The notes under the pieces were generated by a model that was not told the DNA's origin, searched no databases, and saw only the letters and a list, made by a program, of their open reading frames with translations. A DNA stretch of 64,000 bases. Source: an uncultured Bdellovibrionales bacterium (lineage in GTDB: Bacteria > Bdellovibrionota > UBA1018 > CAIPTA01). A program made the translations under genes and the position numbers. The stretch lies in contig CAYQES010000004.1 in assembly GCA_964416595.1 (NCBI GenBank), forward strand, positions 5,588 to 69,587. Reading direction: 5' to 3'. Below are positions 1,782-55,940 of this stretch, piece after piece. How positions within the stretch are numbered: the stretch's first letter is position 1; every line of letters starts with the position of its first letter.

Positions 1782-4700
1782 GTGGAAATCTTTCGCAAAA
1801 TTTCGCTTTTTCTTTTTCTGCACTTGCTGTTGATAACGCAAGTTATGGCCGCGCCTACGGCGCTGGAGAGACGCTCCAAAGACCTCAAAGAATGGGGAAA
1901 TAGAGTTCGAGACGAAATGGGAACTTTGCTGACTCCACCTGCGGGCAGCATAGATCCTGCGGTAGCGGCGGCTCGCACTAAAATCCAAGAGATTGTGGAA
2001 AATTTGGCGGGGGAACGTTTAAAAAATGCACCCTTTCAATTGGTGATAAACTTATTCGAAGGCCCGGTGCCCAATGCCTACATGAACAACGTGGATGCTT
2101 CTTACCAAGAAAAAAAAGGTCTCCTTACGCGCATAAAAAAAATGCTGGGCGCAAAAGACAAACCTGTTTTTGAGTTGGGCATCAGCACCGAGCTTTTAAG
2201 GTTAGCCAGTACCGAAGATGAATTAGCTTTTATCGTGGGCCATGAATTGGGCCATTTGCTGGAAGGCCATGTGCACACTCACGCGGGCGAGGATCGATCA
2301 AAGCACTGGTGGTCGAGCCAAGCCAACGAAGTGGCCGCGGACTATGAAGGCCTACGCATGATGCGGGGGAAATATGATCTTACGGCCGGCATAGATATTC
2401 TCGCTAAATTGAAATCACTTCAGGCCGCCGACGAAAATCTCTTGCGGGGAGCCATTTTTTCCGGTTTAGGCACCCACCATCATGAAGGGCCGCGCTTTAG
2501 TTTAATGCAAGCGAATATCGAAAATTTACGGCGCACTCATTTGGATGCACAACCTCGGCAAAGGCTTCCCTTGGAAGAGGATTTACGTGTTCTAGGGGGG
2601 AGAAAAAGAGGAGGACAAGACGCCCAGATCTTTGAAAAAAATAAAGGCTTGGTGCAGGAAATTGTGGAGAAATATTTCCTGCCCGAAAAAAAATTTCCTA
2701 TTTCTTTTGAAGATGAGCATTATCTTTTCGATACGCCAAAAAAATTCGATAAGATATTTGACGCGGGAGAAGTATTAAGCGATCGGCAAATCCACGACAC
2801 TTTCCTCTATAATTTTAACCTAATCAAGAAGGCAAACGCCAGTAAGCAAGCGAAAGTAAATTCCCTGCTGAAGTTAGCACTATTATCTGACTATTATGTA
2901 GCCGCTAAAAATAGTAATGGTCACGTTTGGCAAATCCTATCGCCTAAGGAACTACAGGAAGTCACGCATTTTTTGGCTAGTCAAAGTGTAGGCGAAGGCG
3001 CTTGGCAGCTAAAAGGTTTTTTTGATTCTATTCAATATTCAACGGTGAAGGAAGTTTTATTGCAAAGCTTTCTCGCTAGCCCAAACCTCCAAAAGGAAAT
3101 ACAGCGCCTGGGGAAAACCATCCCTGCCTGGCACACATTCTATGATGATTTGTTGGCCAAGGTATTATTGGAAAACGACAAGATAAAGCTTAACGAGATT
3201 TCAAGAATTTTAAATACGCATCCCCCCCTCTTTTTTTCCAAAGAGACAATTCAAGAATCCGTTGGGGGGAAAAAAGTACGTGTAGTTCGCTATAAAATGC
3301 AGCCAACGGGCGCCCAAAATATTGAAACCATTTTTCGAATTTTAGGCACACAAAATTTAGCGGCGATTGTAAGGGAACAGCCCATAGAGGCACTGGACCT
3401 TTACGAAAAAACAAAAAATTTAGATGGAGTGAAAAATCCTCTGGAAAAGGAATTTTTAGTGAGAATGCGGCCGTTTTTGGAGCCGGCTCTGCGTGATTTA
3501 CAAGCTGACTATTTTTCTGTGTTTACTTCTCATCTTGCAAAGAGTAACAAACCATACCGCTACCACGGTGCTGTAGAAAATATTCTACTCTTTGAAAAGA
3601 GCATGGGAGCCAACCCAGCCTTTGATCATCCCACTCGCAACCTCTTTCTAGAAATTTCGGAGCTTTTCCCAAAACTCGGCAAAGACGTTGTGAACACAAT
3701 GCAATCCCCCATATTTGTAGACTACCTATCAAAGATGCTGGTGGATCCCACCATTCCTTTAGAGAAAAAGGAAAACCTATTCAACTGGCTAATCGCAGAT
3801 AGCATCGGAAAAATGCCTCTTTTCCAGGAAGAAGAAAAAAATCAGAAAATGTTGGCCCGGATTTCGGAATACTTTCAACAAAATTGGGATCGCGAAAAAT
3901 TGCAGAAATTTTTGACCAGTGGGGCTTTAAAGGCAAAAACAAAAAAGAAGATCGAAGCTTTTCAAGAGAGAATAAAGGCGGAGCCCTCACTTCTTTCATC
4001 CCAATCGCATGAATTGCATTATTTTTTAGGGCAGCCGCTGGAGGAAAAAAATGGCTTTTTAGCAATGTTAAGTCATTTGGAGGGAAAGGAAAAAATATTC
4101 GATTATTCTTCCCTCGACAAATATCTAGCGTGGAGAAACTCATATAAACAGTTGTCCCTAAAAGAGGTGGAAAGAGTTTCCGGAAAAAAATACATAAAAG
4201 ATGCGGTTGAATATCTTAATTTCACAGATATCAACTCCGCCTCGTTTCTTTTGGATGTTTTCGTGCAAAATCAGTCTCAGGCAACCAGTTATGCCAGCTG
4301 GAAAAAGAATTTTTTAGCCATTGTTCAGAATTTTCCCCAGGTGTTGGATGCTAATCAAAAGTACCGGCAAGAGCTCATGCCTTTTCTGGAAAAGAAATGG
4401 TTTGAGGGGTTGCCCATAGAAAAAATTGCAAAGGAATTGGAAAATCCTCACATCCGCGCCATCCTTAACCCTGAGCAATTGGCCGATTATTTATCTCGTT
4501 ACGCTTTAGCGAGATTGGACGGAGTGCTTTACACCAATACGCGCGCCAAGGATTTGTTGGAGAAAATAGAAAAAACCTACGTTTTAAAAGAAAATCCTGA
4601 AGCCAGAGAAATTTTTAAAGAGAAGTTCTTGGTGGGCATGAAAGCCCAACCTGGGCAGGCTGATAAACTTTTTCCTAACCTAACTAAGGCTTTTACCACC

Positions 4701-6419
4701 ACGGAACTTACTACTAGCATGAATGAGCCCATCCGGGGCCTCAGCACGATGGTGGCCCTTACGCGGCCGGAGCCTGTGGAAGAGCAATTGAAGATGATTG
4801 ACTATCTTTTAGGAAACCAAGATGAGGTTCCCACTTTTTTTAAAAAAGCGGTGGCAAAGGTTGATGCGAACAAATTGCCCCGGGCCAACAATCTTTTGTT
4901 ACTAGCCCGTTCCCGCTTGAAAAATGCCACGCAAGTGGAACGTGCCGTGATGGTGAATAGTTTCTTGGCGGGCCCCAGTGGCCCAGGGGAATCGGACGCT
5001 GGAATAAAAGTGATCACGGATAAGATTTTGGCGAATGTAGATTCAAAAAACAAAGAATTGGCAGAAGTTTTTGCCAAGGCTTTACTCGATGCCAATAGCG
5101 ATATGCGCTCCTTGGCATTGAGCTACATTCTTGCTGGCCAAAAACCCGGCGTAGCTTTAAAGGAAGCAGATATTTTGGCGAGCTTGTTATTAATGCACGG
5201 AGTGCCCGGTATTAAGCTCGGCCAGTATTTAGGTTTTACGGAAGCATTTAAAGAGTACGCGGAAAAATTAGCAGACTTTCAGGATGCAGCCTCTCCTTTG
5301 AAATACGGAGAAGTGATTGATCTATTAGAAAAGCGCTTTGGCAAAGATTGGCCAAAAACCATGGAAGTAAAAGGTTTGCTGGGCTCCGGTTCCGTGAACG
5401 TGGCTGTGGAATTAGTGGATAAGAAAACCGGTCAATCCCAAGTGATTTCTATTTTACGTCCAGATATCCAGGTGTCCGCTCAAGATAGTTTCCGTAAAAT
5501 GAACGCACTTCTTGCGGAATTATCGAAGGTAAAGACATTAGGATACAACTTTGATTTCCTAAAAGGCCTATCCGGCATTGTGCAAAAATCTGTGGAACTG
5601 GAATTCGATAAGCAGGCAGCTTTCGATATGCAGCGAAGGGTGTTCGACCGTTACGAAGCTAAGAAAAATGGCTGGACAATCGAATCCGTGGAAGCACTTA
5701 AGATGGAGCATGACGGAATCTTTATGCAAAAAGCTAATGGAGTAACGGCCAAGAAACTTTTCCGCACCGATCCCGCTCTGTACAAACAGACCATGACGGC
5801 CATGAGTGAAGTGGAAATGGATATTCTCTTAGGGATTGGGAAAGATGGCAAACCTCATCCTGTTCCTCTCCACGCCAATCCGGACTTCCACGATGGGCAA
5901 GTGATCATTGATGTAGAAAATCGCAAAGTGCAGATTCTAGATTTCGGCCAGGCCGTGGAAATTTCAAATGCGGAGAGGAACCAAGCCATTGAAGTGTTGC
6001 GGGTGATTTCCAAGTCTGAGAGCGCAGAATCGGCCCAGAAGATTTTAAATCAACTTTCTAAGGAGATTAGTGGTAAGGAAGCATTCACTTTAGATGAAGT
6101 GAAGAAGCTCCTCAATAGCTCTTCTGACCGCATGGATTTATTTGTGAAACTTATTTCCCATATGCGCCTGAAAGAATCGGAGCTACCGCTGCCAGTGGTG
6201 CATTGGGTTTTGGGGGTAAATCGCCAGATAGAATTGGGTAAAAAAATCGGGGTGGATAATTTGGCGGTTTTCCGTAACTTGATCATCGCCCGTAAAGCGG
6301 GATTGAGTCCTAAGTTTTACAACCGTGCCCACTTGAGTTTTCGCTCCGTGAAAAAATTTGCCCGCACTTGCAAGGAGCGCTTTGGCCAGCTGCTTTTGCT
6401 TTCGCCTATTAGCCCTTAA
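1782..6419 (+). CDS. giant secreted multidomain protein: signal peptide + M48-like Zn-peptidase (HExxH...ExxAD) + long helical region + C-terminal ABC1/UbiB-like atypical kinase fold
   Basis: Single 1545-aa ORF with a GTG start. The N-terminus is hydrophobic (FLFLHLLLITQVMAAP). There is a HELGHLLEGH motif followed by NEVAADYEGL (third Zn-ligand motif of M48). C-terminal motifs read LGSGSVNVAVEL, ELEFDKQAAFD, HANPDFHDGQVIID and ILDFGQA, in ABC1 order. Confidence 0.7.
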   Translation: MEIFRKISLFLFLHLLLITQVMAAPTALERRSKDLKEWGNRVRDEMGTLLTPPAGSIDPAVAAARTKIQEIVENLAGERLKNAPFQLVINLFEGPVPNAYMNNVDASYQEKKGLLTRIKKMLGAKDKPVFELGISTELLRLASTEDELAFIVGHELGHLLEGHVHTHAGEDRSKHWWSSQANEVAADYEGLRMMRGKYDLTAGIDILAKLKSLQAADENLLRGAIFSGLGTHHHEGPRFSLMQANIENLRRTHLDAQPRQRLPLEEDLRVLGGRKRGGQDAQIFEKNKGLVQEIVEKYFLPEKKFPISFEDEHYLFDTPKKFDKIFDAGEVLSDRQIHDTFLYNFNLIKKANASKQAKVNSLLKLALLSDYYVAAKNSNGHVWQILSPKELQEVTHFLASQSVGEGAWQLKGFFDSIQYSTVKEVLLQSFLASPNLQKEIQRLGKTIPAWHTFYDDLLAKVLLENDKIKLNEISRILNTHPPLFFSKETIQESVGGKKVRVVRYKMQPTGAQNIETIFRILGTQNLAAIVREQPIEALDLYEKTKNLDGVKNPLEKEFLVRMRPFLEPALRDLQADYFSVFTSHLAKSNKPYRYHGAVENILLFEKSMGANPAFDHPTRNLFLEISELFPKLGKDVVNTMQSPIFVDYLSKMLVDPTIPLEKKENLFNWLIADSIGKMPLFQEEEKNQKMLARISEYFQQNWDREKLQKFLTSGALKAKTKKKIEAFQERIKAEPSLLSSQSHELHYFLGQPLEEKNGFLAMLSHLEGKEKIFDYSSLDKYLAWRNSYKQLSLKEVERVSGKKYIKDAVEYLNFTDINSASFLLDVFVQNQSQATSYASWKKNFLAIVQNFPQVLDANQKYRQELMPFLEKKWFEGLPIEKIAKELENPHIRAILNPEQLADYLSRYALARLDGVLYTNTRAKDLLEKIEKTYVLKENPEAREIFKEKFLVGMKAQPGQADKLFPNLTKAFTTTELTTSMNEPIRGLSTMVALTRPEPVEEQLKMIDYLLGNQDEVPTFFKKAVAKVDANKLPRANNLLLLARSRLKNATQVERAVMVNSFLAGPSGPGESDAGIKVITDKILANVDSKNKELAEVFAKALLDANSDMRSLALSYILAGQKPGVALKEADILASLLLMHGVPGIKLGQYLGFTEAFKEYAEKLADFQDAASPLKYGEVIDLLEKRFGKDWPKTMEVKGLLGSGSVNVAVELVDKKTGQSQVISILRPDIQVSAQDSFRKMNALLAELSKVKTLGYNFDFLKGLSGIVQKSVELEFDKQAAFDMQRRVFDRYEAKKNGWTIESVEALKMEHDGIFMQKANGVTAKKLFRTDPALYKQTMTAMSEVEMDILLGIGKDGKPHPVPLHANPDFHDGQVIIDVENRKVQILDFGQAVEISNAERNQAIEVLRVISKSESAESAQKILNQLSKEISGKEAFTLDEVKKLLNSSSDRMDLFVKLISHMRLKESELPLPVVHWVLGVNRQIELGKKIGVDNLAVFRNLIIARKAGLSPKFYNRAHLSFRSVKKFARTCKERFGQLLLLSPISP

Positions 6420-47327: not shown

Positions 47328-48662
47328 ATGAAGATCTTATTGGTTTCCGACAATAAGGAAGTAAAAGAACTTTTGAGTTTTCATCTCACTTCCCATCATC
47401 CCATTACGGTGCGTGAATGCAGTTCCGCACGGGAAGCCGTGGAAATTCTCAGCAAAGAAGATTCTTCCACTTTCGGAGCGCTTGTGGCGCCTTACAATGG
47501 CCAAGATTCTGTGATTTTGCAGCATTTGAAAGGGCGCGCTACGCCCTTGCCTGTGATTTTTTTCTACGATCCAGTGATGGGCAAGCCTGATAATGCCGCC
47601 TTCGCGGGACTGGCTTTGATTGGCACTGTGGAGCAGGCCACAATGCTGGATGGAATTAGCAGTTTGCTCTCAGGTTTTTTGTTAAAGGGTGGATCGGCGG
47701 AGAGTTTGAGTGAGTATTGCCCGATTCGCACCAATCTCATTATTCGCGTGAGCCCCTTGAAGGGCGATATTTATGTGCGTCTTTCAAAAGATAAATACGT
47801 AAAACTTTTCCGTAGTGGCGATGAGTTTGAACACACAGATCTCGAGAAATACTACGAGACCAAAAAAATCGAATATATGTACTTGAAGCGAACGGATATT
47901 TCCGAATTCATCAATCGCTTTCGTAAAGAACTGGAAGATTTGCTCGCGCGCAGCGATGTGAAACCCGAAGAGGCCTTGGCTACGGCGGAAATGTCGCAAG
48001 AGGCGATCCAGGAATTAGTGCATCGAGTGGGTTTCAACGAGGAAGTGCAAGAGCTTGCGAAGAAAAACGTGCAACTTACTCTAAAGGCCATCGGTGCCCA
48101 CCCACGTTTGCAGGATCTCATCAACAAGGTAACCAAAGAGGGAAATTATATTTCCCAGCACAGCACGCTCCTAGCCCATGTTTCCTGTTGTGTGGCTAAA
48201 GAGATGGAGTGGGGTTCCGATTCCACTTTTAATAAATTAGTGCTCGCTTCTTTTATGCACGATGTTTCTCTCAATAATCCCCAGATCGCCAAGATCAACA
48301 CCATGCGGGAATTAGAGGAACGAAAAAGTGAATTTCCTGAGGATTTGGTGAAAAGCTACCACTTGCATCCGGCTAAATCCGCCGATGTGGTGCGGAATTT
48401 TAAAGAAATTCCTGCGGATGTGGATCTCATTGTGATGCAACACCATGAGCGCCCCAATGGAACAGGGTTTCCTCGAGGTTTGGCGCATAATTATGTAGCG
48501 CCTTTGGGTGCTCTCTTCATCATCTCCCACGATCTCACGCAAGCGATCATGGAACGGAAAGAGGCATTTTCTCTGCCCGATTTCGTGGAAGATAAAAAAA
48601 CTCTCTTCAATCAGGGCAATTTCAAAAAAGTGATGGCGGTGTTGGAGAAAGTGAAGTTATAG
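47328..48662 (+). CDS. degenerate receiver-like domain + HD-GYP-type phosphohydrolase domain protein
   Basis: Its ATG overlaps the upstream stop (TAAATG). The N-terminal ~110 aa have a REC-like fold pattern but no phospho-acceptor Asp (ILLVSDNKE; no D near residue 55). The C-terminus has FMHDVS (HD) and HHERPNGTGFP (HHExxDGxGYP-like) HD-GYP motifs. Confidence 0.6.
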   Translation: MKILLVSDNKEVKELLSFHLTSHHPITVRECSSAREAVEILSKEDSSTFGALVAPYNGQDSVILQHLKGRATPLPVIFFYDPVMGKPDNAAFAGLALIGTVEQATMLDGISSLLSGFLLKGGSAESLSEYCPIRTNLIIRVSPLKGDIYVRLSKDKYVKLFRSGDEFEHTDLEKYYETKKIEYMYLKRTDISEFINRFRKELEDLLARSDVKPEEALATAEMSQEAIQELVHRVGFNEEVQELAKKNVQLTLKAIGAHPRLQDLINKVTKEGNYISQHSTLLAHVSCCVAKEMEWGSDSTFNKLVLASFMHDVSLNNPQIAKINTMRELEERKSEFPEDLVKSYHLHPAKSADVVRNFKEIPADVDLIVMQHHERPNGTGFPRGLAHNYVAPLGALFIISHDLTQAIMERKEAFSLPDFVEDKKTLFNQGNFKKVMAVLEKVKL

Positions 48663-49358
48663 GAGCGGGCAGGCGCCAGCCTGATCGAACAAGCGATGCC
48701 AATCTTTGGTCCATGTTGCTTGTAAAACAAGAACTTTGCCCGAAAGTTGTTGGATTTTCATTTCTGCGCACCGAAGAAGCATGCGTTCCACTCCCGTGAG
48801 TGCGGCAAATTCTCGATTTAGTTTTTTATCTCCATGTTGTTTATCACCGAGTATTGGGAATCCAGCGGCTGCCAAATGGCGGCGAATCTGATGGAAGCGC
48901 CCAGTGAGTGGTTCGGCCCAAAGTAGGGTGAAGGTGCGTGGCGTGCCTTTGGGGCCAAGGATCGGTAGTTGAAAGTGGTGTAGGGCTTCGAGCTGGGTGC
49001 GGGCCGGCTGGGATTCGCCTTTTGTGTTTTTTAGGGGCAGTTCTAAGAGAGAGGATCCGAGAAAAGATCCTCGCACAAGGCAAAGGTATTTCTTCTGCAC
49101 CGATTGCTCTTGGAATTGTTTTTGGAAAAAACTATTTAGTTCTTTTTGTTTAGAGAAAAGCAGGATGCCGGAAGTGGCTCGATCTAAACGGTGCATGGGA
49201 TAGAGGGTGGTGGATAATTGCTTTTGCAGGATGCCAAGGCTATTCCAGCGAGGATTGAGGGCAATAGATTTATCTTCCGGCGGATGACTATGAAACCCTG
49301 GGGGCTTATCCACGGCTACGAGCGAATCGTCTTCATATAGGATGCGGAGAGCGAGCAT
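48657..49358 (-). CDS. RluA-family pseudouridine synthase
   Basis: HRLDRATSGILLFSK catalytic Asp motif; 233 aa. Confidence 0.75.
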   Translation of the reverse strand: MLALRILYEDDSLVAVDKPPGFHSHPPEDKSIALNPRWNSLGILQKQLSTTLYPMHRLDRATSGILLFSKQKELNSFFQKQFQEQSVQKKYLCLVRGSFLGSSLLELPLKNTKGESQPARTQLEALHHFQLPILGPKGTPRTFTLLWAEPLTGRFHQIRRHLAAAGFPILGDKQHGDKKLNREFAALTGVERMLLRCAEMKIQQLSGKVLVLQATWTKDWHRLFDQAGACPLL

Positions 49359-49547
49359 AGAGTTATAAGCGCAAGGTACATTTCCCAGAGGCTTTTTGCT
49401 ACTTTCTTAGCCTGTGAAATCTCAGGGGAATTTTCATTAACGGATCTAACTATTTGAATTTATGATGGTTTATTCCCCATTCTAATATACGACTAAATTA
49501 ATATGTTATAATTACCGATAGGGGTAACGTGCCTGGGGAGGTGTTGT

Positions 49548-52500
49548 TTGTTCTTAAAAGCCCTAGCCTTCGTTCGCGACCAAATTGCCAGTTTAATTAC
49601 AGTACAAACCGCTGCCTGGACTGGCTCGTCTATTTTGGCTGCCGTTGCCACTAAAACATTGGTGATGCCTATTATTATGGAAGAGCTGAAAATGGCTCAG
49701 CCGGAGTCTAATCCCGTGGTGGTGGAGGCTCCTCTTTCCTCTGAGCACTCCCACAGAGATTTTCACAATTTACCTAAATCTTTGAACAAGAACTTTGGGG
49801 ATTCAAAAAAAGCCCAATCAGAATCGGCTGCTGTAGATAAAGCTGGGCAAACGAGCGAAGTTGCCAGTAGTGGTGGAACTCCCACTTCAGAGGCAGTGCC
49901 TAGTTTTGGTTTTAGTGCCCCTCGCACACTAGCTTCCAGTGAAAGCAATAAAGTAAAAAAACAAGAGGAAGAGAAAAAGGATTCTTTGTTTGTGGGGGGA
50001 TCTAGTAGTGCTTCTACTAGCACCGATACAAGTACTTCCACGAGCACATCAGCCTCTACTAGCACCACAGAAGAGGCGGTGACCATCAGTGTATCTTTCG
50101 CTGCCAGTTCTCAAACTGTGACGGAAGGCACAGCTACCGCCACTGTAACGGTGAGCCTATCTTCTGCTTCTACAAATGAAATCACGGTGCCCGTTACTGT
50201 GGGCGTAGCTTCTACGGCCGTGAATATTACGGATTATACGATCGCGACTTCCACGGTAACCATCGCCGCCGGCAGCACTTCTGGTACTTTGACTGTAACT
50301 CTGGTGGATGATGCGCTCACAGAACTTTCGAAATCACTCGTATTAACCTTGGGAACACCCAGCGAGGGTGAATTGGTTACTGCTTCATCCACTCACACCA
50401 TTACTTTGAGTGATAACGACACTTCTTCCTTAGCGATCGGCACTCCAGTGAGTGTTACAGAGGGTGGGGTGGCTACCGCTACTGTGACCCTTACAGGTAC
50501 CGCAGCCTATGACATTACCGTTAGCTACTATACCACGGATAGTTCTGCTTTGGCTGCCACTGACTATACAGCTCGCTCGGCTACACTCACCATTCCTGCT
50601 GGTAGCACTTCGGGCGCGATCAACGTGAACACGATCAATAATTCTCTGGATGAAGCGGTTCGTAGTTTCTTTATAACTTTATCTACTCCTGTGGGAGCTT
50701 CTTTAACCACTAATACGGCCACTGTGAACATTAACGACGACGATTTTACCCCGGGTGTATACGCAAAAGCATCCATGGGTGGTGACGCCATGTTGCTGTT
50801 AACGGCTGGAGGAGGCTTAAAGACAAGTGGCAGTGCAAATATTAATGGCTGGATTTTCACTCCTACCGATGTATCTGGCTATACTACTGGCGTTTTAGAT
50901 ATTTCCGCTGGTAATGGCACGTTCTGCATTATCGTAACTGGAAACGCAGCCAAATGTTGGGGGGGGAACGGTAATGGTAGCGTTGGAGACGGAACCACCA
51001 GCAATCGTACAGCTCCCACTCAAGTAACAGGTCTTACTTCAGGAGTTGCACAGATTAGCGCTTATAGTTCATTGGCCTGCGCCGTATTAACTGATGGAGC
51101 GGCGAAATGCTGGGGTAATAATACAAGCGGCGTTTTAGGCGATGGAACTACGAATAACTCTTCCACTCCAGTTACAGTTTCAGGAATTGATGGGGTTGCT
51201 GCCGATGCAATTTATATTGCAGCTGGCACCTCCCGTTCTTGCGCGGTCATTTCCGATGGTACTATTCGTTGTTGGGGGGCTAACTGGTTAGGAGATAATA
51301 CCTCTAACCCCAGCAATACTCCGGTTACTGTGCAGGGGATCGCTTCCGGTGCTACAAAGGTGGGCGTAGGTTACGCCAACTCTTGCGCTCTGGTGAATGG
51401 TGGCGTGAAGTGTTGGGGTTGGGCTAACTATGGTGTAAACGGTGTTTATGCCAATGCTGCTACACCTGTTGATATCGCAGGCCTAACAACTAACGTAATC
51501 GATATAGCTGTGGGCTGGACTAATGCTTGTGCTGTTACTACGGCGGGTGCTGTAAAATGCTGGGGAACGAATGCTTCAGGTGAGCTAGGTAATGGTACCA
51601 GTACTGACAGCGCAACCCCCGTGCAAGTAACGGGTCTTACTTCAGGCGTTACGTCTATATCTGGAATCAGTGGTTCCTTTTGTGCTCGTTTAAGTACTTC
51701 TGAAGTGAAGTGTTGGGGTGACTCTTCTTATGGGAGGCAGGGTAATCAGAAGGGCCCTGGGCACCGATTTTCTCCTGTTGATCTAACTACTTTACCCGCC
51801 AATACTACTGCTCTTCAATTTGGTAACTTCCTTTGTGTGCTAAATAATTTAGGTGGAGTGAGTTGTGTGGGCAATAACGGGCAGCACGGAACCATGGGGA
51901 ATGGTACGTGGAGCAACGCAGTTACTTTCCAAAACGTTACAGGTCTTGCCTCTGGTGTAAGTAAACTAGCTTCTACCACCCATACAATATGTGCTCTATT
52001 GACCGATAAAACGGTTAAATGCTGGGGGTATAGCAATATTGGTCAAGTTGGCGATGGTGCCACCACCAGTCGTAACGTACCCGTGGCCGTAAGTGGTATT
52101 ACTGATGCTATCGATATCTATGCCTATAAAAGCGGTCATGGATTTTGTGTGATCTTAAACGATAAGACAGTAAAATGTTGGGGCTCGAATGACCAATATC
52201 AACTTGGCGATGGCACCAACACCAACCGCAGCGCCCCAGTTGCCGTTGTGGGTTTGGCCGATGTTTCGAAATTGGCTCTATCGACCAGTGGTGCTTGCGC
52301 GCTCTTAACTGATCAAACAGTAAAGTGTTGGGGGCTAGGAAATTCAGGACAGATAGGTGACGGTACAAATAATAACAGAACTAGTCCGACCCAAGTATCA
52401 GGCTTGGGAGTTAGCTCTGGAGTGGTGGATATTACTGCCGGCTCCAACCATTACTGCGTGCGTTTTAATTCTGGTGCTATGAAATGCTGGGGAAATGGTG

Positions 52501-52880
52501 GCTACGGTAATTTAGGCCAAGGAGCTAACACTAATAGTAACGTGCCTATCACTCCCACTGGTTTGGGTAGTGGAGTGAGTGGTATCGCGGCTGCCGGTAC
52601 GATCAGCTGTGCACTTCTTACTACCGGCCCTGTGAAATGTTGGGGCAGCTCTTGGACGTGCGGTAACCCGATTGGTAACGGAGATACTACTTGTGCATTA
52701 AAAAATACGCCGCAACAAGTTTCGGGTATTACAGCCGGAGTTACTGAAATCCAATCGCATACAACTGCTATCACAGCTAAATTAGAAGATGGCACTTGGA
52801 AGTTCTGGGGTGCTGTTGGCACCGATGCGGCCGTACCCGATGGTTTCAACAGCCGGGTTCCCAATTTCGTTGCGCCCTAA
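49548..52880 (+). CDS. giant repeat protein: Ser/Thr-rich linker + three Calx-beta-like repeats + about thirteen RCC1-like beta-propeller repeats
   Basis: Three ~100-aa repeats (TEGTATATVTVSLSSAS...ITVPVTV...DYT..TSTVTIAAGSTSGTLTV.L.DD.L.E). Then ~13 repeats of the form A..CA.L.DG.VKCWG.N..GQLGDGT...R..P. The ORF-track start 49548 is TTG. Alternative in-frame ATGs at 49665 and 49692 make the start uncertain. Confidence 0.6.
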   Translation: MFLKALAFVRDQIASLITVQTAAWTGSSILAAVATKTLVMPIIMEELKMAQPESNPVVVEAPLSSEHSHRDFHNLPKSLNKNFGDSKKAQSESAAVDKAGQTSEVASSGGTPTSEAVPSFGFSAPRTLASSESNKVKKQEEEKKDSLFVGGSSSASTSTDTSTSTSTSASTSTTEEAVTISVSFAASSQTVTEGTATATVTVSLSSASTNEITVPVTVGVASTAVNITDYTIATSTVTIAAGSTSGTLTVTLVDDALTELSKSLVLTLGTPSEGELVTASSTHTITLSDNDTSSLAIGTPVSVTEGGVATATVTLTGTAAYDITVSYYTTDSSALAATDYTARSATLTIPAGSTSGAINVNTINNSLDEAVRSFFITLSTPVGASLTTNTATVNINDDDFTPGVYAKASMGGDAMLLLTAGGGLKTSGSANINGWIFTPTDVSGYTTGVLDISAGNGTFCIIVTGNAAKCWGGNGNGSVGDGTTSNRTAPTQVTGLTSGVAQISAYSSLACAVLTDGAAKCWGNNTSGVLGDGTTNNSSTPVTVSGIDGVAADAIYIAAGTSRSCAVISDGTIRCWGANWLGDNTSNPSNTPVTVQGIASGATKVGVGYANSCALVNGGVKCWGWANYGVNGVYANAATPVDIAGLTTNVIDIAVGWTNACAVTTAGAVKCWGTNASGELGNGTSTDSATPVQVTGLTSGVTSISGISGSFCARLSTSEVKCWGDSSYGRQGNQKGPGHRFSPVDLTTLPANTTALQFGNFLCVLNNLGGVSCVGNNGQHGTMGNGTWSNAVTFQNVTGLASGVSKLASTTHTICALLTDKTVKCWGYSNIGQVGDGATTSRNVPVAVSGITDAIDIYAYKSGHGFCVILNDKTVKCWGSNDQYQLGDGTNTNRSAPVAVVGLADVSKLALSTSGACALLTDQTVKCWGLGNSGQIGDGTNNNRTSPTQVSGLGVSSGVVDITAGSNHYCVRFNSGAMKCWGNGGYGNLGQGANTNSNVPITPTGLGSGVSGIAAAGTISCALLTTGPVKCWGSSWTCGNPIGNGDTTCALKNTPQQVSGITAGVTEIQSHTTAITAKLEDGTWKFWGAVGTDAAVPDGFNSRVPNFVAP

Positions 52881-53066
52881 TTCTTCCTAAAACAGCATGA
52901 AGCTTATGTACCGACAGGTACTCACATCATAAGTGTCCGAATTTTTGATGTCACAAATTGTAATGCCAAAAACAGATTTGCTTGGTGCAAGCAATGCTCG
53001 ATAGCGATTTAGCGGAACTTTATGAGGTGGTTACGATTAACGCGCATGCGACACAAAAAGTAGCCG

Positions 53067-53143
53067 GACACCAAATGGTGCACTCGGCGAGAGTCGAACT
53101 CACGACCTTTGCCTTCGGAGGGCAACGCTCTATCCAACTGAGC
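53067..53143 (-). tRNA. tRNA-Arg (anticodon CCG), CCA encoded
   Basis: The reverse complement reads GCACTCG-TAGCTCAGTTGGATAGAGCG-TTGCC-CTCCGAA-GGCAA-AGGTC-GTGAGTTCGACTCTCGC-CGAGTGC-A-CCA. It has a 7-bp acceptor stem, anticodon loop CT-CCG-AA, a T-loop GTTCGA, and is 77 nt. Confidence 0.9.
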
Positions 53144-53311
53144 TACGAGTGCGAAAATTTGTCTTTGTCCTACCTTTTTCTGCCCACTAGCTCAATGGCT
53201 TTCTCGATTTCTCTCGCAAACCAAGAAATGATGCATTGAATCATTTCTTCCTGCTCTAGCTTGGATTTTTCTTTTTCCTTTCCTATGGCTATACTTTCTA
53301 GCGAGGTGGCA

Positions 53312-53668
53312 ATGAAACATATTCTATTACTTACTTTCATGATTCTGGTTCCTACTTTGGGTTTTGCTAAGCCGGCTAAGGATGAGAAAAAACAGAAAAC
53401 TTCCATCGCAGCGAGCGACTGCTTGAAAGTTGCTCAGGATGTGGCTACCAGAGCTTTAAAAGATGAGGATGAAGACGCCGCCCTTGTTCCTCTAGCCAAG
53501 GGTGAAAAGCCGCGATTTATGAACCTGCAGAACGGCGGGGTTTACGCTTTGGCCGGCAAAATCGGTGGCAGCGCTGGTTGGGATGTGGTGGTAGTGGTGA
53601 ATAACATTTGCGTGGAGCAAGATGTTTTTATCCAAGATGCCGTTAGTTACCCTGGCATGGCCGAATAA
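53312..53668 (+). CDS. small secreted hypothetical protein
   Basis: ATG 53312; signal peptide MKHILLLTFMILVPTLGFA; 118 aa. Followed by the hairpin AGCCTGCT-ttttaag-AGCGGGCT plus TTTTT, a candidate terminator at about 53699..53731. Confidence 0.5.
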   Translation: MKHILLLTFMILVPTLGFAKPAKDEKKQKTSIAASDCLKVAQDVATRALKDEDEDAALVPLAKGEKPRFMNLQNGGVYALAGKIGGSAGWDVVVVVNNICVEQDVFIQDAVSYPGMAE

Positions 53669-53784
53669 AATAAATTCTATAACGTCAAAATAATTTTAAG
53701 CCTGCTTTTTAAGAGCGGGCTTTTTGTTTCCTTCTATTTCTAAGCTTTGGTATGCAAAGGGCCTCGTAAATACTCAGAGGTTTT

Positions 53785-55002
53785 ATGCAGTCCATTTCTA
53801 GAAGTGCCAAGCTCGCTGTCCTTGTTTCGGCTTTAGGATATTTTGTTGATATCTATGATTTGCTTTTGTTTAGCATCGTACGAGTGGCGAGCCTTCGAAG
53901 CTTGGGCTTGCCCGAAGAAGAGTTACTTTCTCAAGGCGTGTTGCTGATCAATACGCAGATGGCGGGCTTGCTTTTAGGTGGAATTTTTTGGGGGGTTTTG
54001 GGAGACAAACGCGGGCGCCTATCAGTGCTGTTCGGCTCCATTCTACTTTACTCTCTAGCCAATATTGCCAATGCCTTTGTGCAAACAGTTCCCCAGTATG
54101 CCATCTTGCGTTTCATCGCGGGTATCGGTTTGGCCGGAGAATTGGGTGCGGGCATTACTTTGGTGTGTGAACTTATGCCCAAGGAAAAACGTGGCTATGG
54201 CACCATGGTTGTAGCAAGCATCGGAATTCTCGGCGCTGTATTTGCTGCCTTTGTAGGTGAGCTCACCTCTTGGCGCACAGCCTATGTGGTGGGTGGGGTG
54301 ATGGGGTTGATGCTACTTGTGCTGAGAGTAAGCGTGAGTGAGTCTGGTTTATTTGAAGGCATCAAAGCCCGAGTAGAAGTTAGCCGTGGAAATTTTTTGT
54401 CTCTTTTTTCTCCTTGGGCGCGAGCTAGAAAATATATCGCAGTGATTTTAGTGGGAGTTCCGATTTGGTTTATTGTGGGTGTTCCCGTAACTTTCGCTCC
54501 TGAATTTGGAAAAAGTTTTCTCATGCAAGAATTACCCAAGGCTGGTAGCGCCGTGATGTTTTGTTATCTTGGTTTGTCCTTAGGAGATTTAATTTCCGGA
54601 TGGGTGAGTCAGCTTTTGGGTAGCCGGAAAAAATCGTTGTATGTTTTTTTAGCGATTTTGGGCGGTTCCTATGCTCTCTACACACAATTTGCCGGCGCCT
54701 CTCTTTTCACTTACTACCTCTTTTGTTTTTTGATGGGTGTGGGCGCGGGCTATTGGGCCATGTTTGTTACGATAGCTTCAGAGCAATTCGGCACGAACCT
54801 TAGGGCCACCGCCACCACAACGGCACCTAATTTTGTGCGTGGAGCGGTGATTCCGATCACTATGTCCTTTGAGTATTTGCGCCAATCCTTCGGTGTGGTG
54901 CCGGGAGCATCAATGGTGGGTTTGGTGGTGTTGGGATTAGCTTTTATTTCGGTCTCGTTTTTGGAGGAAACTTTTTCCAAAGATATGGATTATCTCGAAT
55001 AG
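53785..55002 (+). CDS. MFS transporter
   Basis: 12 predicted TM helices and the MFS loop motif GVLGDKRGRL between TM2 and TM3. Confidence 0.75.
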   Translation: MQSISRSAKLAVLVSALGYFVDIYDLLLFSIVRVASLRSLGLPEEELLSQGVLLINTQMAGLLLGGIFWGVLGDKRGRLSVLFGSILLYSLANIANAFVQTVPQYAILRFIAGIGLAGELGAGITLVCELMPKEKRGYGTMVVASIGILGAVFAAFVGELTSWRTAYVVGGVMGLMLLVLRVSVSESGLFEGIKARVEVSRGNFLSLFSPWARARKYIAVILVGVPIWFIVGVPVTFAPEFGKSFLMQELPKAGSAVMFCYLGLSLGDLISGWVSQLLGSRKKSLYVFLAILGGSYALYTQFAGASLFTYYLFCFLMGVGAGYWAMFVTIASEQFGTNLRATATTTAPNFVRGAVIPITMSFEYLRQSFGVVPGASMVGLVVLGLAFISVSFLEETFSKDMDYLE

Positions 55003-55185
55003 TTTTCCACGGTGCCGTGTATCGGCATTGAAGATGGGTGCATTAGCCAAGATGCCCCGGTAGCCGGATAAATTATAAATCACTGAAATCACGTAAAGAT
55101 TTTAATTGTAGGGGAGCCCCTGACCGGGCGTTTACGTTTGACAGGAGGGAAAGGAAAATTTAGGCTTAAATAGGGAATAAAATAG

Positions 55186-55932
55186 GTGTGGGGGCCGCGC
55201 TTGATTTCTTTTGATGCAAAAATTTCCAGGAGAAAACTACTTACTTCCGCTCCTCTATTGATTGGTGGAGTGGCAACGGCGGGCGGAGCATTTACGTTGC
55301 CCCAGATTTTTTCTTCTTTCACAAAAAAAGAAAAGCAATCCGGCGCCGAAGCCTCCCAACTCAATTTAGTGCTTCATTACTCTCCCTTTGATTTCCATGA
55401 GAGTTGGAAAAAAAGCCAAGCTTCAGGTTCTTTCTCTACCATGGCCCGTTGCCTTTCTTACGATACGATGGCTAACTTCACCAAAAATGAGCTGTTGTTT
55501 CTCGAAGCATATAATGGTGAAGAGCTCGTGGGTTATGTGGGTTTGCGGAACTACAGAGATACCAATCCCGGCGAACTCGTTTCTTCTTTGAAGTTATGGT
55601 TTGGTAACGCTAATCCGCCTGCGGGCACCCGCGGTAAGATCGACGAATCCGCTCCCTGGGCTAAGTTCAAAGGTGATTTTGCTTATATCGCTCGCTATTG
55701 GGTGCACCCTGAGTGGCGGGGACAAAAGCTTGGTAGCCGCATGATCAAACGTTTGCAGCACGAAGCTTCGATGGTGTGGCGTCCGGAAGCGTATTTATCT
55801 TTTGTGGTGAAAAAAGATTTGGCCAATTATTTGGTGCGAGACAAAGCTTTTCAATCCCAGCACGCAAATAGCTTCGAATACACCTCGCCTTATCGGCATC
55901 TTTCCAATACAGCTCTCTGGCGCCGGGCTTAG
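55186..55932 (+). CDS. GNAT-fold acetyltransferase-like protein with TAT-type signal peptide
   Basis: GTG start. N-terminus SRRKLLTSAPLLIGGVATAGGAF (twin-arginine pattern). LVGYVGL...YIARYWVHPEWRGQKLGSRMIKRL resembles GNAT motifs A and B. Confidence 0.45.
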   Translation: MWGPRLISFDAKISRRKLLTSAPLLIGGVATAGGAFTLPQIFSSFTKKEKQSGAEASQLNLVLHYSPFDFHESWKKSQASGSFSTMARCLSYDTMANFTKNELLFLEAYNGEELVGYVGLRNYRDTNPGELVSSLKLWFGNANPPAGTRGKIDESAPWAKFKGDFAYIARYWVHPEWRGQKLGSRMIKRLQHEASMVWRPEAYLSFVVKKDLANYLVRDKAFQSQHANSFEYTSPYRHLSNTALWRRA

Positions 55933-55940
55933 TGCCTAGT

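Follow-up and report, generated by a model that had tools for sequence, protein, structure and literature searches.

The gene described here lies at 49548-52880 (+) of the window, the whole stretch of 64 kb of DNA that was analysed, in the slot between a truC/rluA-family pseudouridine synthase gene and tRNA-Arg(CCG). It is one uninterrupted ORF of 1110 aa (coordinates with the stop codon), as the initial annotation had it, and is a real and intact gene, large but not "giant" as it had been called. The start is TTG 49548, located 6 nt 3' of a Shine-Dalgarno sequence GGAGG (49537-49541), both read directly in the sequence, and the earlier doubt that a convincing start exists is not upheld. An extended -10 element, TGTTATAAT, is present 5' of the start, with TG at 49504-5 and TATAAT at 49507-49512, in a region of 37% G+C; the AT-rich promoter region with a TATAAT box was thus described correctly. 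A full -35/-10 promoter was not reported by the consensus scan in the upstream region 49359-49547. This region was not alignable to relatives and gave no blastn match to the intergenic DNA of L043-L045.

The truC-like gene on the left matched NCBIfam TruC (E 3e-42) and the RluA subfamily (8.8e-37), in each case short of the equivalog cut-off. On the right, the 3' end of tRNA-Arg(CCG) faces the gene across a gap of 195 nt. Both neighbours had been placed there initially as well, and rightly. Rfam recognized no RNA element other than tRNA. A hairpin with a T-run on the minus strand, found at 52994-52978 in the terminator scan, is likely the tRNA-Arg terminator. An ORF6N-like peptide was noticed at 52994-53041 (+), with a sub-threshold Pfam match (E 0.016) and no PHROG support. 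In blastn, positions 1-96 of L043, the closest relative, matched window positions 53132-53037 at 89.6%, and the window-specific DNA extends from 49359 to about 53036 (3.7 kb). The features are listed in Table 1.

Table 1. Features of the slot between truC and tRNA-Arg(CCG), with coordinates in the window.
Feature	Coordinates	Strand	Evidence
truC/rluA-family pseudouridine synthase gene, conserved left anchor of the slot	48657..49358	-	NCBIfam, homologs
Divergent intergenic region with extended -10 and Shine-Dalgarno sequence	49359..49547	.	AT-rich, 37% GC
N-terminal 176 aa (weakly hydrophobic head, then linker)	49548..50075	+	AF2, hydropathy, homology search
Calx-beta module 1 (aa ~177-290)	50076..50417	+	Pfam PF03160; AF2 beta-sandwich, pLDDT ~80-90
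Calx-beta module 2 (aa ~291-402)	50418..50753	+	Best Pfam stretch aa 302-399; AF2
RCC1-like beta-propeller 1, blades 1-7 (aa ~405-752; boundary with propeller 2 approximate)	50760..51803	+	AF2, Foldseek, PDB
RCC1-like beta-propeller 2, blades 8-14 (aa ~753-1110), and stop codon	51804..52880	+	AF2, Pfam, PDB
Window-specific trailing DNA	52881..53036	.	Terminator scan; homology to L043 ends ~53037
39-nt 3' flank of tRNA-Arg, shared with closest relative L043; right edge of the slot	53037..53075	-	blastn, alignment
tRNA-Arg(CCG), conserved right anchor of the slot	53076..53152	-	ARAGORN; Rfam tRNA, 69.1 bits

Pfam, a sequence search of PDB, and the AlphaFold2 (AF2) model agreed on the architecture of the protein: an orphan N-terminus, two Calx-beta sandwiches of the calcium-type, Ig-like kind, and 14 RCC1-like blades. 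Pfam matches above gathering thresholds were found for Calx-beta (PF03160; E 4.9e-23, 81.8 bits against a cut-off of 27, in two stretches), RCC1 (PF00415; 1.2e-43, 147.8 against 21.7), RCC1_2 (PF13540; 3.4e-41, 138.5 against 22), and WD40_RLD (PF25390; 5.5e-69, 233.7 against 150, with the best stretch at aa 709-970). These bear out both domain types named in the initial annotation. Their numbers had to be corrected, as there are two Calx-beta modules and not three (two Pfam stretches, two AF2 sandwiches), and 14 four-stranded blades and not about 13. Calx-beta module 1 had a Foldseek match to NCX1 CBD12 (E ~1e-14), and PDB sequence matches to the Na/Ca exchanger CBD were at aa 316-406, in module 2. 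Candidates for acidic Ca2+-coordinating residues are found in VDDALTE and a terminal DND of module 1 and in NNSLDE and a terminal DDD of module 2.

In the predicted structure, 14 groups of four strands, with pLDDT mostly >90, make two closed 7-bladed RCC1-like propellers in tandem; over sandwiches and blades together, pLDDT is mostly >85-95. PDB sequence matches were to UVR8 at aa 500-694 (E 2e-33) and to HERC2/RCC1 at aa 822-1000. In Foldseek, the model matched UVR8 with target-normalised TM of 0.83-0.87 and rmsd of about 2 A, and also the RLDs of HERC2 and RPGR. In sequence, the protein is closer to UVR8 or HERC2 than to RCC1 proper (E ~1e-12). A C-x9-10-C-W/V-G motif was identified in 12 of the 14 blades, the first and the last being degenerate. 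All 26 Cys are within blades 2-13 and form 13 pairs with spacing of 9-11 residues; the family consensus keeps the CAxxxxGxxxCWG pattern. No C-terminal sorting domain follows the last blade, and no paralogs of the gene were found in the window.

The head of the N-terminus, aa 1-44, is weakly hydrophobic and includes a possible AVA|T cleavage motif at 32-34; a disordered Ser/Thr-rich linker follows within aa 1-176. In the AF2 model, pLDDT is <50 over most of these 176 residues, and hydropathy reaches at most 1.57 (Kyte-Doolittle mean over 19 residues). Among 1.84 billion representatives, aa 1-156 had no homologs apart from the sequence itself and one weak low-complexity match, and the region matched no Pfam family. 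Neither a canonical Sec signal peptide nor a lipoprotein signal was identified at the N-terminus, and neither an in-frame extension upstream nor a signal peptide hidden upstream or in other frames was found. The signal peptide with lipobox Cys that a member of the Calx-beta/RCC1 lipoprotein family (P0004, P0007, P0018, P0029, P0039) should have is absent: the N-terminal 176 aa contain no lipobox and no Cys, the first Cys of the protein being residue 460. The homologs of the same architecture begin with lipoprotein signal peptides and are therefore exported. By analogy to them, and according to the borderline hydrophobic N-terminus and the Cys pattern, the window protein is probably exported, too.

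Non-self matches were at best 33-41% identical, with none above 41% in 5.8 billion clusters, and no donor was therefore identified. Plasmids and phages yielded nothing closer than distant RCC1-like propellers of unrelated architecture (<=40% identity), and no donor element. RCC1-like propellers had initially been taken as uncommon in bacteria, which is contradicted by 352 matches at E<=1e-5 among the scored candidates and by their presence on 69 plasmids of many genera; they are described as pangenomic by Stevens & Paoli (2008), as cited in PMC9218822. The same domain order is found in Calx-beta and RCC1-like lipoproteins named "alpha-tubulin suppressor-like RCC1 family protein" (COG5184-type; P0004, P0007, P0009, P0010, P0018), in which Calx-beta repeats are followed by about 14 or more blades with CAxxxxGxxxCWG, and which are 33-37% identical over about 82% of the query. 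Like them, the window protein stops directly after the last blade. These lipoproteins differ in having a lipoprotein signal peptide, 4-6 Calx-beta domains, low-GC genomes, and ordinary chromosomal contexts, whereas the window protein has the orphan disordered 176-aa N-terminus without lipobox, two Calx-beta domains, and a place in the tRNA-Arg/truC slot. Genes of the same-architecture homologs are from genomes of 35-40% GC and have GC3 of 0.21-0.27.

Eukaryotic RLDs (UVR8, HERC2, RPGR, RCC1) have the same seven-bladed propeller with repeats of about 50 aa (target-normalised TM 0.76-0.87, E to 2e-33), but the window protein has two propellers in tandem, Cys pairs in the blades, and a Calx-beta fusion, and it is probably extracytoplasmic. 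No evidence of the GEF, chromatin, and UV-B functions of these RLDs was found in it. A functional analogy is offered by BLIP-II, the Streptomyces beta-lactamase inhibitor protein II, which PMC9218822 describes as a secreted propeller of the RCC1/BLIP-II group that is a tight protein binder only. It belongs to the same superfamily and differs in that it is one small propeller with no Calx-beta domains; for the window protein, no link to a beta-lactamase was found.

The G+C content of the gene (0.484) is typical when compared with the rest of the window (0.494), while its GC3 of 0.404 is the window minimum and its GC2 of 0.564 the window maximum. The gene, initially said to be AT-richer, is so at third codon positions but not overall. 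Its length-corrected synonymous codon deviation is the largest of the window (excess B 0.217, z=12) and is directed toward T-ending codons, with GGT 0.42 against 0.23, ACT 0.41 against 0.22, and GCT 0.45 against 0.26, so the codon usage heavy in GGT and ACT was seen correctly. Calculated within amino-acid classes, this deviation is even over the four parts of the gene. T3 is also raised, to 0.35-0.41, in several other window genes. ThrRS (C3 = 0.50) and other housekeeping genes in the window favour C-ending codons; the T-ending bias is opposite to this, and a high-expression pattern was therefore rejected. The gene had also been called highly internally repetitive, which holds at the protein level but not at the DNA level, where repeat copies are only 60-72% identical over <=43 nt and TRF found no relevant tandem repeats. 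With copies so diverged, assembly collapse is unlikely.

Synteny was compared with Bdellovibrionota relatives, which are distant (TruC 55-60% identical); four of them have readable DNA around the site (L043-L046). Scans of genome and metagenome contigs with TruC gave two other candidates with unrelated neighbours, which were rejected as synteny relatives, L001 as distant (TruC 45% identical) and L034 as fragmentary (TruC 73% over 48 aa). As the initial annotation had proposed to check, the two anchors are neighbours in relatives as well, since tRNA-Arg(CCG) is upstream of truC in L043, L044, L045, and L046, with gaps of ~380, 760, 20, and ~610 nt, respectively; the tRNA-Arg of L043 is truncated. 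In a fifth relative, no more than 966 nt in total lie between the TRAM methyltransferase gene and truC. The order LemA / TRAM-methyltransferase / tRNA-Leu / ... / tRNA-Arg / truC / HD_5 / PP2C-cNMP / DUF4953 / EI24 / RlmL is kept in relatives. What the slot contains differs among the four: nothing, a small secreted ORF, tRNA_bind and a 100-aa ORF, or a GNAT-like ORF. The Calx-beta/RCC1 gene is absent from the slot in all five relatives, and L043-L046 have no Calx-beta or RCC1 remnant there. The comparison supports a variable slot and a lineage-specific gain of the gene in it.

With a probability of about 0.7, the gene encodes an intact Calx-beta/RCC1-like protein, proposed to be an exported binder, that was gained in this lineage at the tRNA-Arg/truC slot. 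In relatives the slot is occupied by other small genes or is empty, so that the gene is an ordinary lineage-specific gain, and its product belongs to a type of surface protein common in bacteria. The gene, its own promoter, and a short 3' trailer (49359-~53036, ~3.7 kb) would have been gained together, entering a short spacer that was ancestrally between tRNA-Arg(CCG) and truC and whose content appears to turn over repeatedly in relatives. The source was most likely a lower-GC lineage, and the route one that leaves no integrase or att scar; the evidence fits transfer from outside and relocation within the genome alike.

The synteny relatives are distant and give no date for the gain, and several lineages could conceivably have lost the gene instead. 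The gene could accordingly be ancestral at the slot and lost independently in the sampled relatives, its codon bias being due to low expression and unusual amino-acid composition. Host-like overall GC, the lack of mobility genes, and the raised T3 of other window genes would agree with such a history. It is nevertheless unlikely, as the slot content is different in each of the four readable relatives without any remnant of the gene, the codon deviation persists within amino-acid classes and along all four parts, and no homolog exceeds the 41% identity given above.

Just as unlikely is that the gene is the surviving cargo of an integrase-mediated island or prophage in the 3' end of tRNA-Arg, with integrase and att since deleted. 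Like tRNA-associated genomic islands, it lies directly 3' of a tRNA, is missing in relatives, and has atypical codon usage, with a typical overall GC; the window-specific DNA starts 39 nt past the tRNA, and the weak ORF6N-like peptide is just within that boundary. Unlike such islands, it has no integrase, no att duplication, and a cargo of one gene only. Neither an integrase nor another tyrosine or serine recombinase was identified among the ORFs from 43 to 64 kb, which agrees with the initial annotation, and no transposase was found. The tRNA 3' end (24 nt) occurs once in 64 kb, even with 3 mismatches allowed, no direct repeats flank the gene, and the ORF6N match is sub-threshold and without PHROG support. 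The slot of relatives holds small non-mobile genes, which suggests recombinational turnover and not site-specific integration. From the horizontal acquisition at a tRNA hotspot that had been suggested, the lineage-specific addition is retained, but the hallmarks of a mobile element (integrase, tRNA 3' duplicate) are missing.

For the protein, an exported ligand- or surface-binding function is likely by analogy, and the 13 regularly spaced Cys pairs point in that direction. The protein would cross the inner membrane, and an intra-blade disulfide would lock each blade. The stalk of two Ig-like Calx-beta domains and the flexible linker would keep the two propellers clear of the cell or membrane, where their surfaces may bind a protein or glycan ligand without enzymatic action. 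This ligand could, for a Bdellovibrionota bacterium, be on the surface of prey or of a particle. A more far-reaching and rather improbable proposal is that the tRNA-Arg(CCG)-truC spacer and the tRNA-Leu-to-tRNA-Arg block form, in this Bdellovibrionota family, a dedicated, integrase-independent exchange site where single genes of secreted or surface proteins come and go, the Calx-beta/RCC1 protein serving as a lineage-specific determinant of prey or substrate recognition. If that were true, the orphan 176-aa N-terminus would be a new export or anchoring signal replacing the lipoprotein signal of its relatives.

A cytoplasmic or injected effector of RCC1 type, like the Ran GTPase-activating Legionella RCC1-repeat proteins, would suit the lack of a canonical Sec or lipoprotein signal, and bacterial effectors with RCC1 repeats are known (Swart et al. 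2020, as cited in bioRxiv 10.1101/2023.11.21.568195). Proteins of the LegG1/PpgA type also have RCC1 repeats, but they are described as translocated into eukaryotic host cells and acting on Ran, whereas the features of the window protein are of extracellular type and its organism belongs to a Bdellovibrionota lineage. Against an effector, and for a surface binder, stand the 13 regular Cys pairs, the Calx-beta domains, and the Ser/Thr linker, all of a kind seen in extracytoplasmic proteins. The homologs are lipoproteins, the protein resembles generic RLDs more than RCC1 proper, and no secretion-system genes adjoin the gene, which makes an effector very improbable. A repeat-collapsed or chimeric join in the metagenome-assembled contig, for which it could be said that the source is seemingly a singleton genome with all queried proteins on one contig, is extremely unlikely, as the DNA repeats are too diverged for collapse (60-72% identity), the ORF is uninterrupted with all 14 blades predicted to fold with high confidence, regulatory signals match the ORF, and the same codon usage runs through the whole gene.

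The finding is of value mainly for annotation. For a Bdellovibrionota lineage that is poorly sampled, it clearly documents the turnover of genes in a slot flanked by a tRNA, and it enlarges the widespread class of Calx-beta/RCC1-like surface proteins of bacteria by a variant that lacks a lipobox. Should these proteins mediate the recognition of prey or surfaces in predatory bacteria, their lineage-specific copies would be candidate determinants of host range.

The gene for the Calx-beta/RCC1 repeat protein is located between truC and tRNA-Arg(CCG), and its lineage-specific gain, taken jointly with the domain architecture described below, has an estimated probability of about 0.7. The ORF is uninterrupted in a single frame, and the ORF list, ARAGORN, and Rfam agree with the initial annotation on its length and on its position between an rluA-type gene and the 3' end of the tRNA. 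As the tRNA is coded on the minus strand, this end faces the stop codon of the gene at a distance of 195 nt.

Features of the locus and other features mentioned in the text (window positions unless a contig is named)
Feature	Position	Strand	Remark
1545-aa ORF	1782-6419	+	GC 0.44
290-aa ORF	33598-34470	-	no Pfam family
290-aa ORF	36065-36937	+	no Pfam family
RluA-family pseudouridine synthase (truC)	48657-49358	-	closest to TruC
Window-specific segment	49359-~53036		
Intergenic region upstream of Calx-beta/RCC1 gene	49359-49547		37% GC
TG-n-TATAAT	49504-49512		
In-frame stop	49509-49511		
GGAGG	49537-49541		
Calx-beta/RCC1 ORF	49548-52880	+	1110 aa, TTG start
Hairpin and T-run	52978-52994	-	likely tRNA-Arg terminator
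Peptide MLDSDLAELYEVVTIN	52994-53041	+	resembles ORF6N N-terminus
tRNA-Arg(CCG)	53076-53152	-	ARAGORN, Rfam
Second variable region	53153-58868		tRNA-Arg(CCG) to tRNA-Leu(CAG)
ORF with MKHILLLTFMILVPTLGFA/KPA	53261-53668	+	listed TTG start probably too far upstream
tRNA-Leu(CAG)	58869-58953	-	ARAGORN
DUF4423 protein	L040 15593-16317		
DUF4423 protein	L042 4988-5794		
DUF4423 protein	L047 10422-11231		

Direct scans with TruC for comparable loci revealed distant or fragmentary loci only. A protein search found TruC homologs with 55-60% identity, several of which bear the label Bdellovibrionota or Bacteriovoracia, and the contigs of these relatives keep the gene order of the window both on the truC side (truC, HD_5, PP2C/cNMP, DUF4953, EI24, and RlmL) and on the other side (LemA and TRAM-tRNA-methyltransferase), with tRNA-Leu(CAG) and tRNA-Arg(CCG) recurring inside this frame. 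In four of them, tRNA-Arg closely precedes truC and has the same orientation; the distance from its 3' end to truC is 20 nt with nothing between in L045, ~380 nt in L043 (a ~101-aa secreted ORF), ~610 nt in L046 (a GNAT-like ORF), and 760 nt in L044 (tRNA_bind and a 100-aa ORF). In a fifth relative genome, the methyltransferase gene is just 966 nt from truC. The Calx-beta/RCC1 gene is absent from this gap in all five relatives compared, and the comparison proposed in the initial annotation shows tRNA-Arg and truC adjacent (20-760 nt) without it in four of them. When the window was aligned with its closest relative, L043, the tRNA and 39 nt of its 3' flank were common and the sequences then diverged, which delimits a window-specific segment containing the gene, its promoter, and a 156-nt trailer.

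The start of the gene is better defined than it first seemed, when none was considered convincing: TTG is the first canonical start past an in-frame stop and follows GGAGG by 6 nt, and neither an upstream extension nor a signal peptide was found in other frames and upstream. No plus-strand intrinsic terminator was found after the stop codon. On the minus strand, a hairpin (TTGCTTGCACCAAGCAA) with T-run follows the 3' end of tRNA-Arg at a distance of ~80 nt.

Synteny and codon usage favour the initial proposal of horizontal acquisition, but no mobile-element signature of any kind supports it. As previously noted, there is no integrase nearby, nor a transposase; no direct repeats flank the gene, and the tRNA-Arg 3' end occurs only once within 64 kb, also with three mismatches allowed. 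Just inside the right edge of the window-specific DNA, the peptide MLDSDLAELYEVVTIN resembles ORF6N (Pfam E 0.016; no match in PHROGs), a hint which may be due to chance. ORF6N-domain proteins are often associated with phages or mobile elements.

The gene was initially described as AT-richer and compositionally atypical. This holds for codon usage, but the total GC of 0.484 is the same as in the rest of the window (0.494). Among 45 long ORFs of the window it has the lowest GC3 (0.404) and the highest GC2 (0.564), the latter because the protein is rich in Thr, Gly, Ser, and Ala. T-ending codons are favoured within synonymous families; T3 in four-fold families is 0.42 versus typical 0.2-0.25, uniformly over all four gene segments. 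No other gene of the window deviates as much in codon usage (excess Karlin B 0.217, z=12 in a simulation corrected for length and composition). ThrRS alone comes close, but its bias runs the other way (C3 0.50, T3 0.11), so the T-bias is not the translationally optimal pattern. The repetitiveness noted before is evident in the protein blades, but DNA repeats are just 60-72% identical and no longer than 43 nt, with no tandem array in TRF, which makes assembly collapse unlikely.

Elsewhere in the window, the two 290-aa ORFs flanking an HD-domain gene and ThrRS have the lowest GC (0.42-0.43; GC3 0.42-0.43) and may be further lineage-specific insertions. The 1545-aa ORF has a weak N-terminal M48 peptidase match and ~1350 residues without assignment beyond it. 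The second variable region encodes a 135-aa secreted ORF, MFS transporter, GNAT, 303-aa ORF, catalase-like, and HTH protein; L044 and L045 have mostly other genes there (radical SAM, S8 peptidase, BrkB, RoxA-like cytochrome, and PAP2), the catalase-like gene alone being partly common to L045. tRNA-Leu(CAG) is conserved in both, and was missing from the whole-window Rfam scan at gathering threshold.

Calx-beta (two stretches), RCC1, RCC1_2, and RCC1-like WD40_RLD were all matched well above curated Pfam thresholds, confirming the suspected domain types. A PDB sequence search matched UVR8 (E 2e-33), HERC2/HERC1 RLDs, RPGR, and RCC1, and Na/Ca-exchanger CBDs at aa ~316-406. In an AlphaFold2 model from an alignment of 33 homologs (mean pLDDT 78.7), most of aa 1-176 is disordered, aa 177-400 form two beta-sandwiches, and aa 405-1108 form 14 four-strand groups with pLDDT mostly >85-95. 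Foldseek placed one propeller on UVR8 (target-normalised TM 0.83-0.87, rmsd ~2 A) and the sandwiches on NCX1 CBD12. Together, these results predict a leader/linker, two Calx-beta domains, and two seven-bladed RCC1-like propellers, instead of the three Calx-beta modules and ~13 blades counted at first. The motif C-x9-10-C-W/V-G is present in 12 blades; the first and last are degenerate.

Identity to the best non-self homologs is 33-41%. Where the architecture is the same, the homologs are lipoproteins that have 4-6 Calx-beta domains, and their genes are in ordinary chromosomal contexts of genomes with 35-40% GC, with GC3 of 0.21-0.27. The GC3 of 0.40 is intermediate between these and the host mean (~0.53), which is compatible with, though no proof of, acquisition from a lineage of lower GC followed by ongoing amelioration. 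DUF4423 proteins are found repeatedly close to the genes of these homologs and also in one relative of the host genome; given the family's distribution, this may hint that these homologs also come from Bdellovibrionota-like lineages.

All 26 cysteines are in blades 2-13 and form 13 pairs with 9-11 residue spacing, a pattern kept in the family consensus. This pattern, considered along with the Calx-beta domains, the Ser/Thr linker, and homologs that are lipoproteins, suggests that the protein is extracytoplasmic and that disulfides staple its blades. The least secure part of this reading is the N-terminus, which lacks a lipobox; a search with its first 156 residues against 1.84 billion representatives gave no homolog besides one weak low-complexity match. 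The initial annotation saw no signal peptide; there is a single borderline hydrophobic stretch (maximum 19-residue hydropathy 1.57) and, judging by sequence, a possible AVA/T cleavage motif at 32-34. Unlike this N-terminus, the internal MKHILLLTFMILVPTLGFA/KPA of the neighbouring ORF resembles a canonical Sec signal peptide, so the organism uses ordinary ones.

On the whole, the initial observation was largely right, with details corrected. Its view of RCC1 propellers as uncommon in bacteria did not hold: they are widespread, with 352 matches at E<=1e-5 among scored candidates. Matches also occurred on 69 plasmids from many different genera and on a few phages, in many domain combinations, and RCC1/BLIP-II propellers are regarded as pangenomic in the literature (Stevens & Paoli 2008, cited in PMC9218822). 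The protein belongs to a known, common class of bacterial repeat proteins, and the tRNA-Arg/truC site is a classical variable tRNA-adjacent slot. Given its extracytoplasmic features, the protein is proposed to be a binder, either exposed at the surface or secreted, whose linker and Calx-beta stalk would hold out two propeller faces to a ligand, with export and binding details less certain than the architecture and gain.
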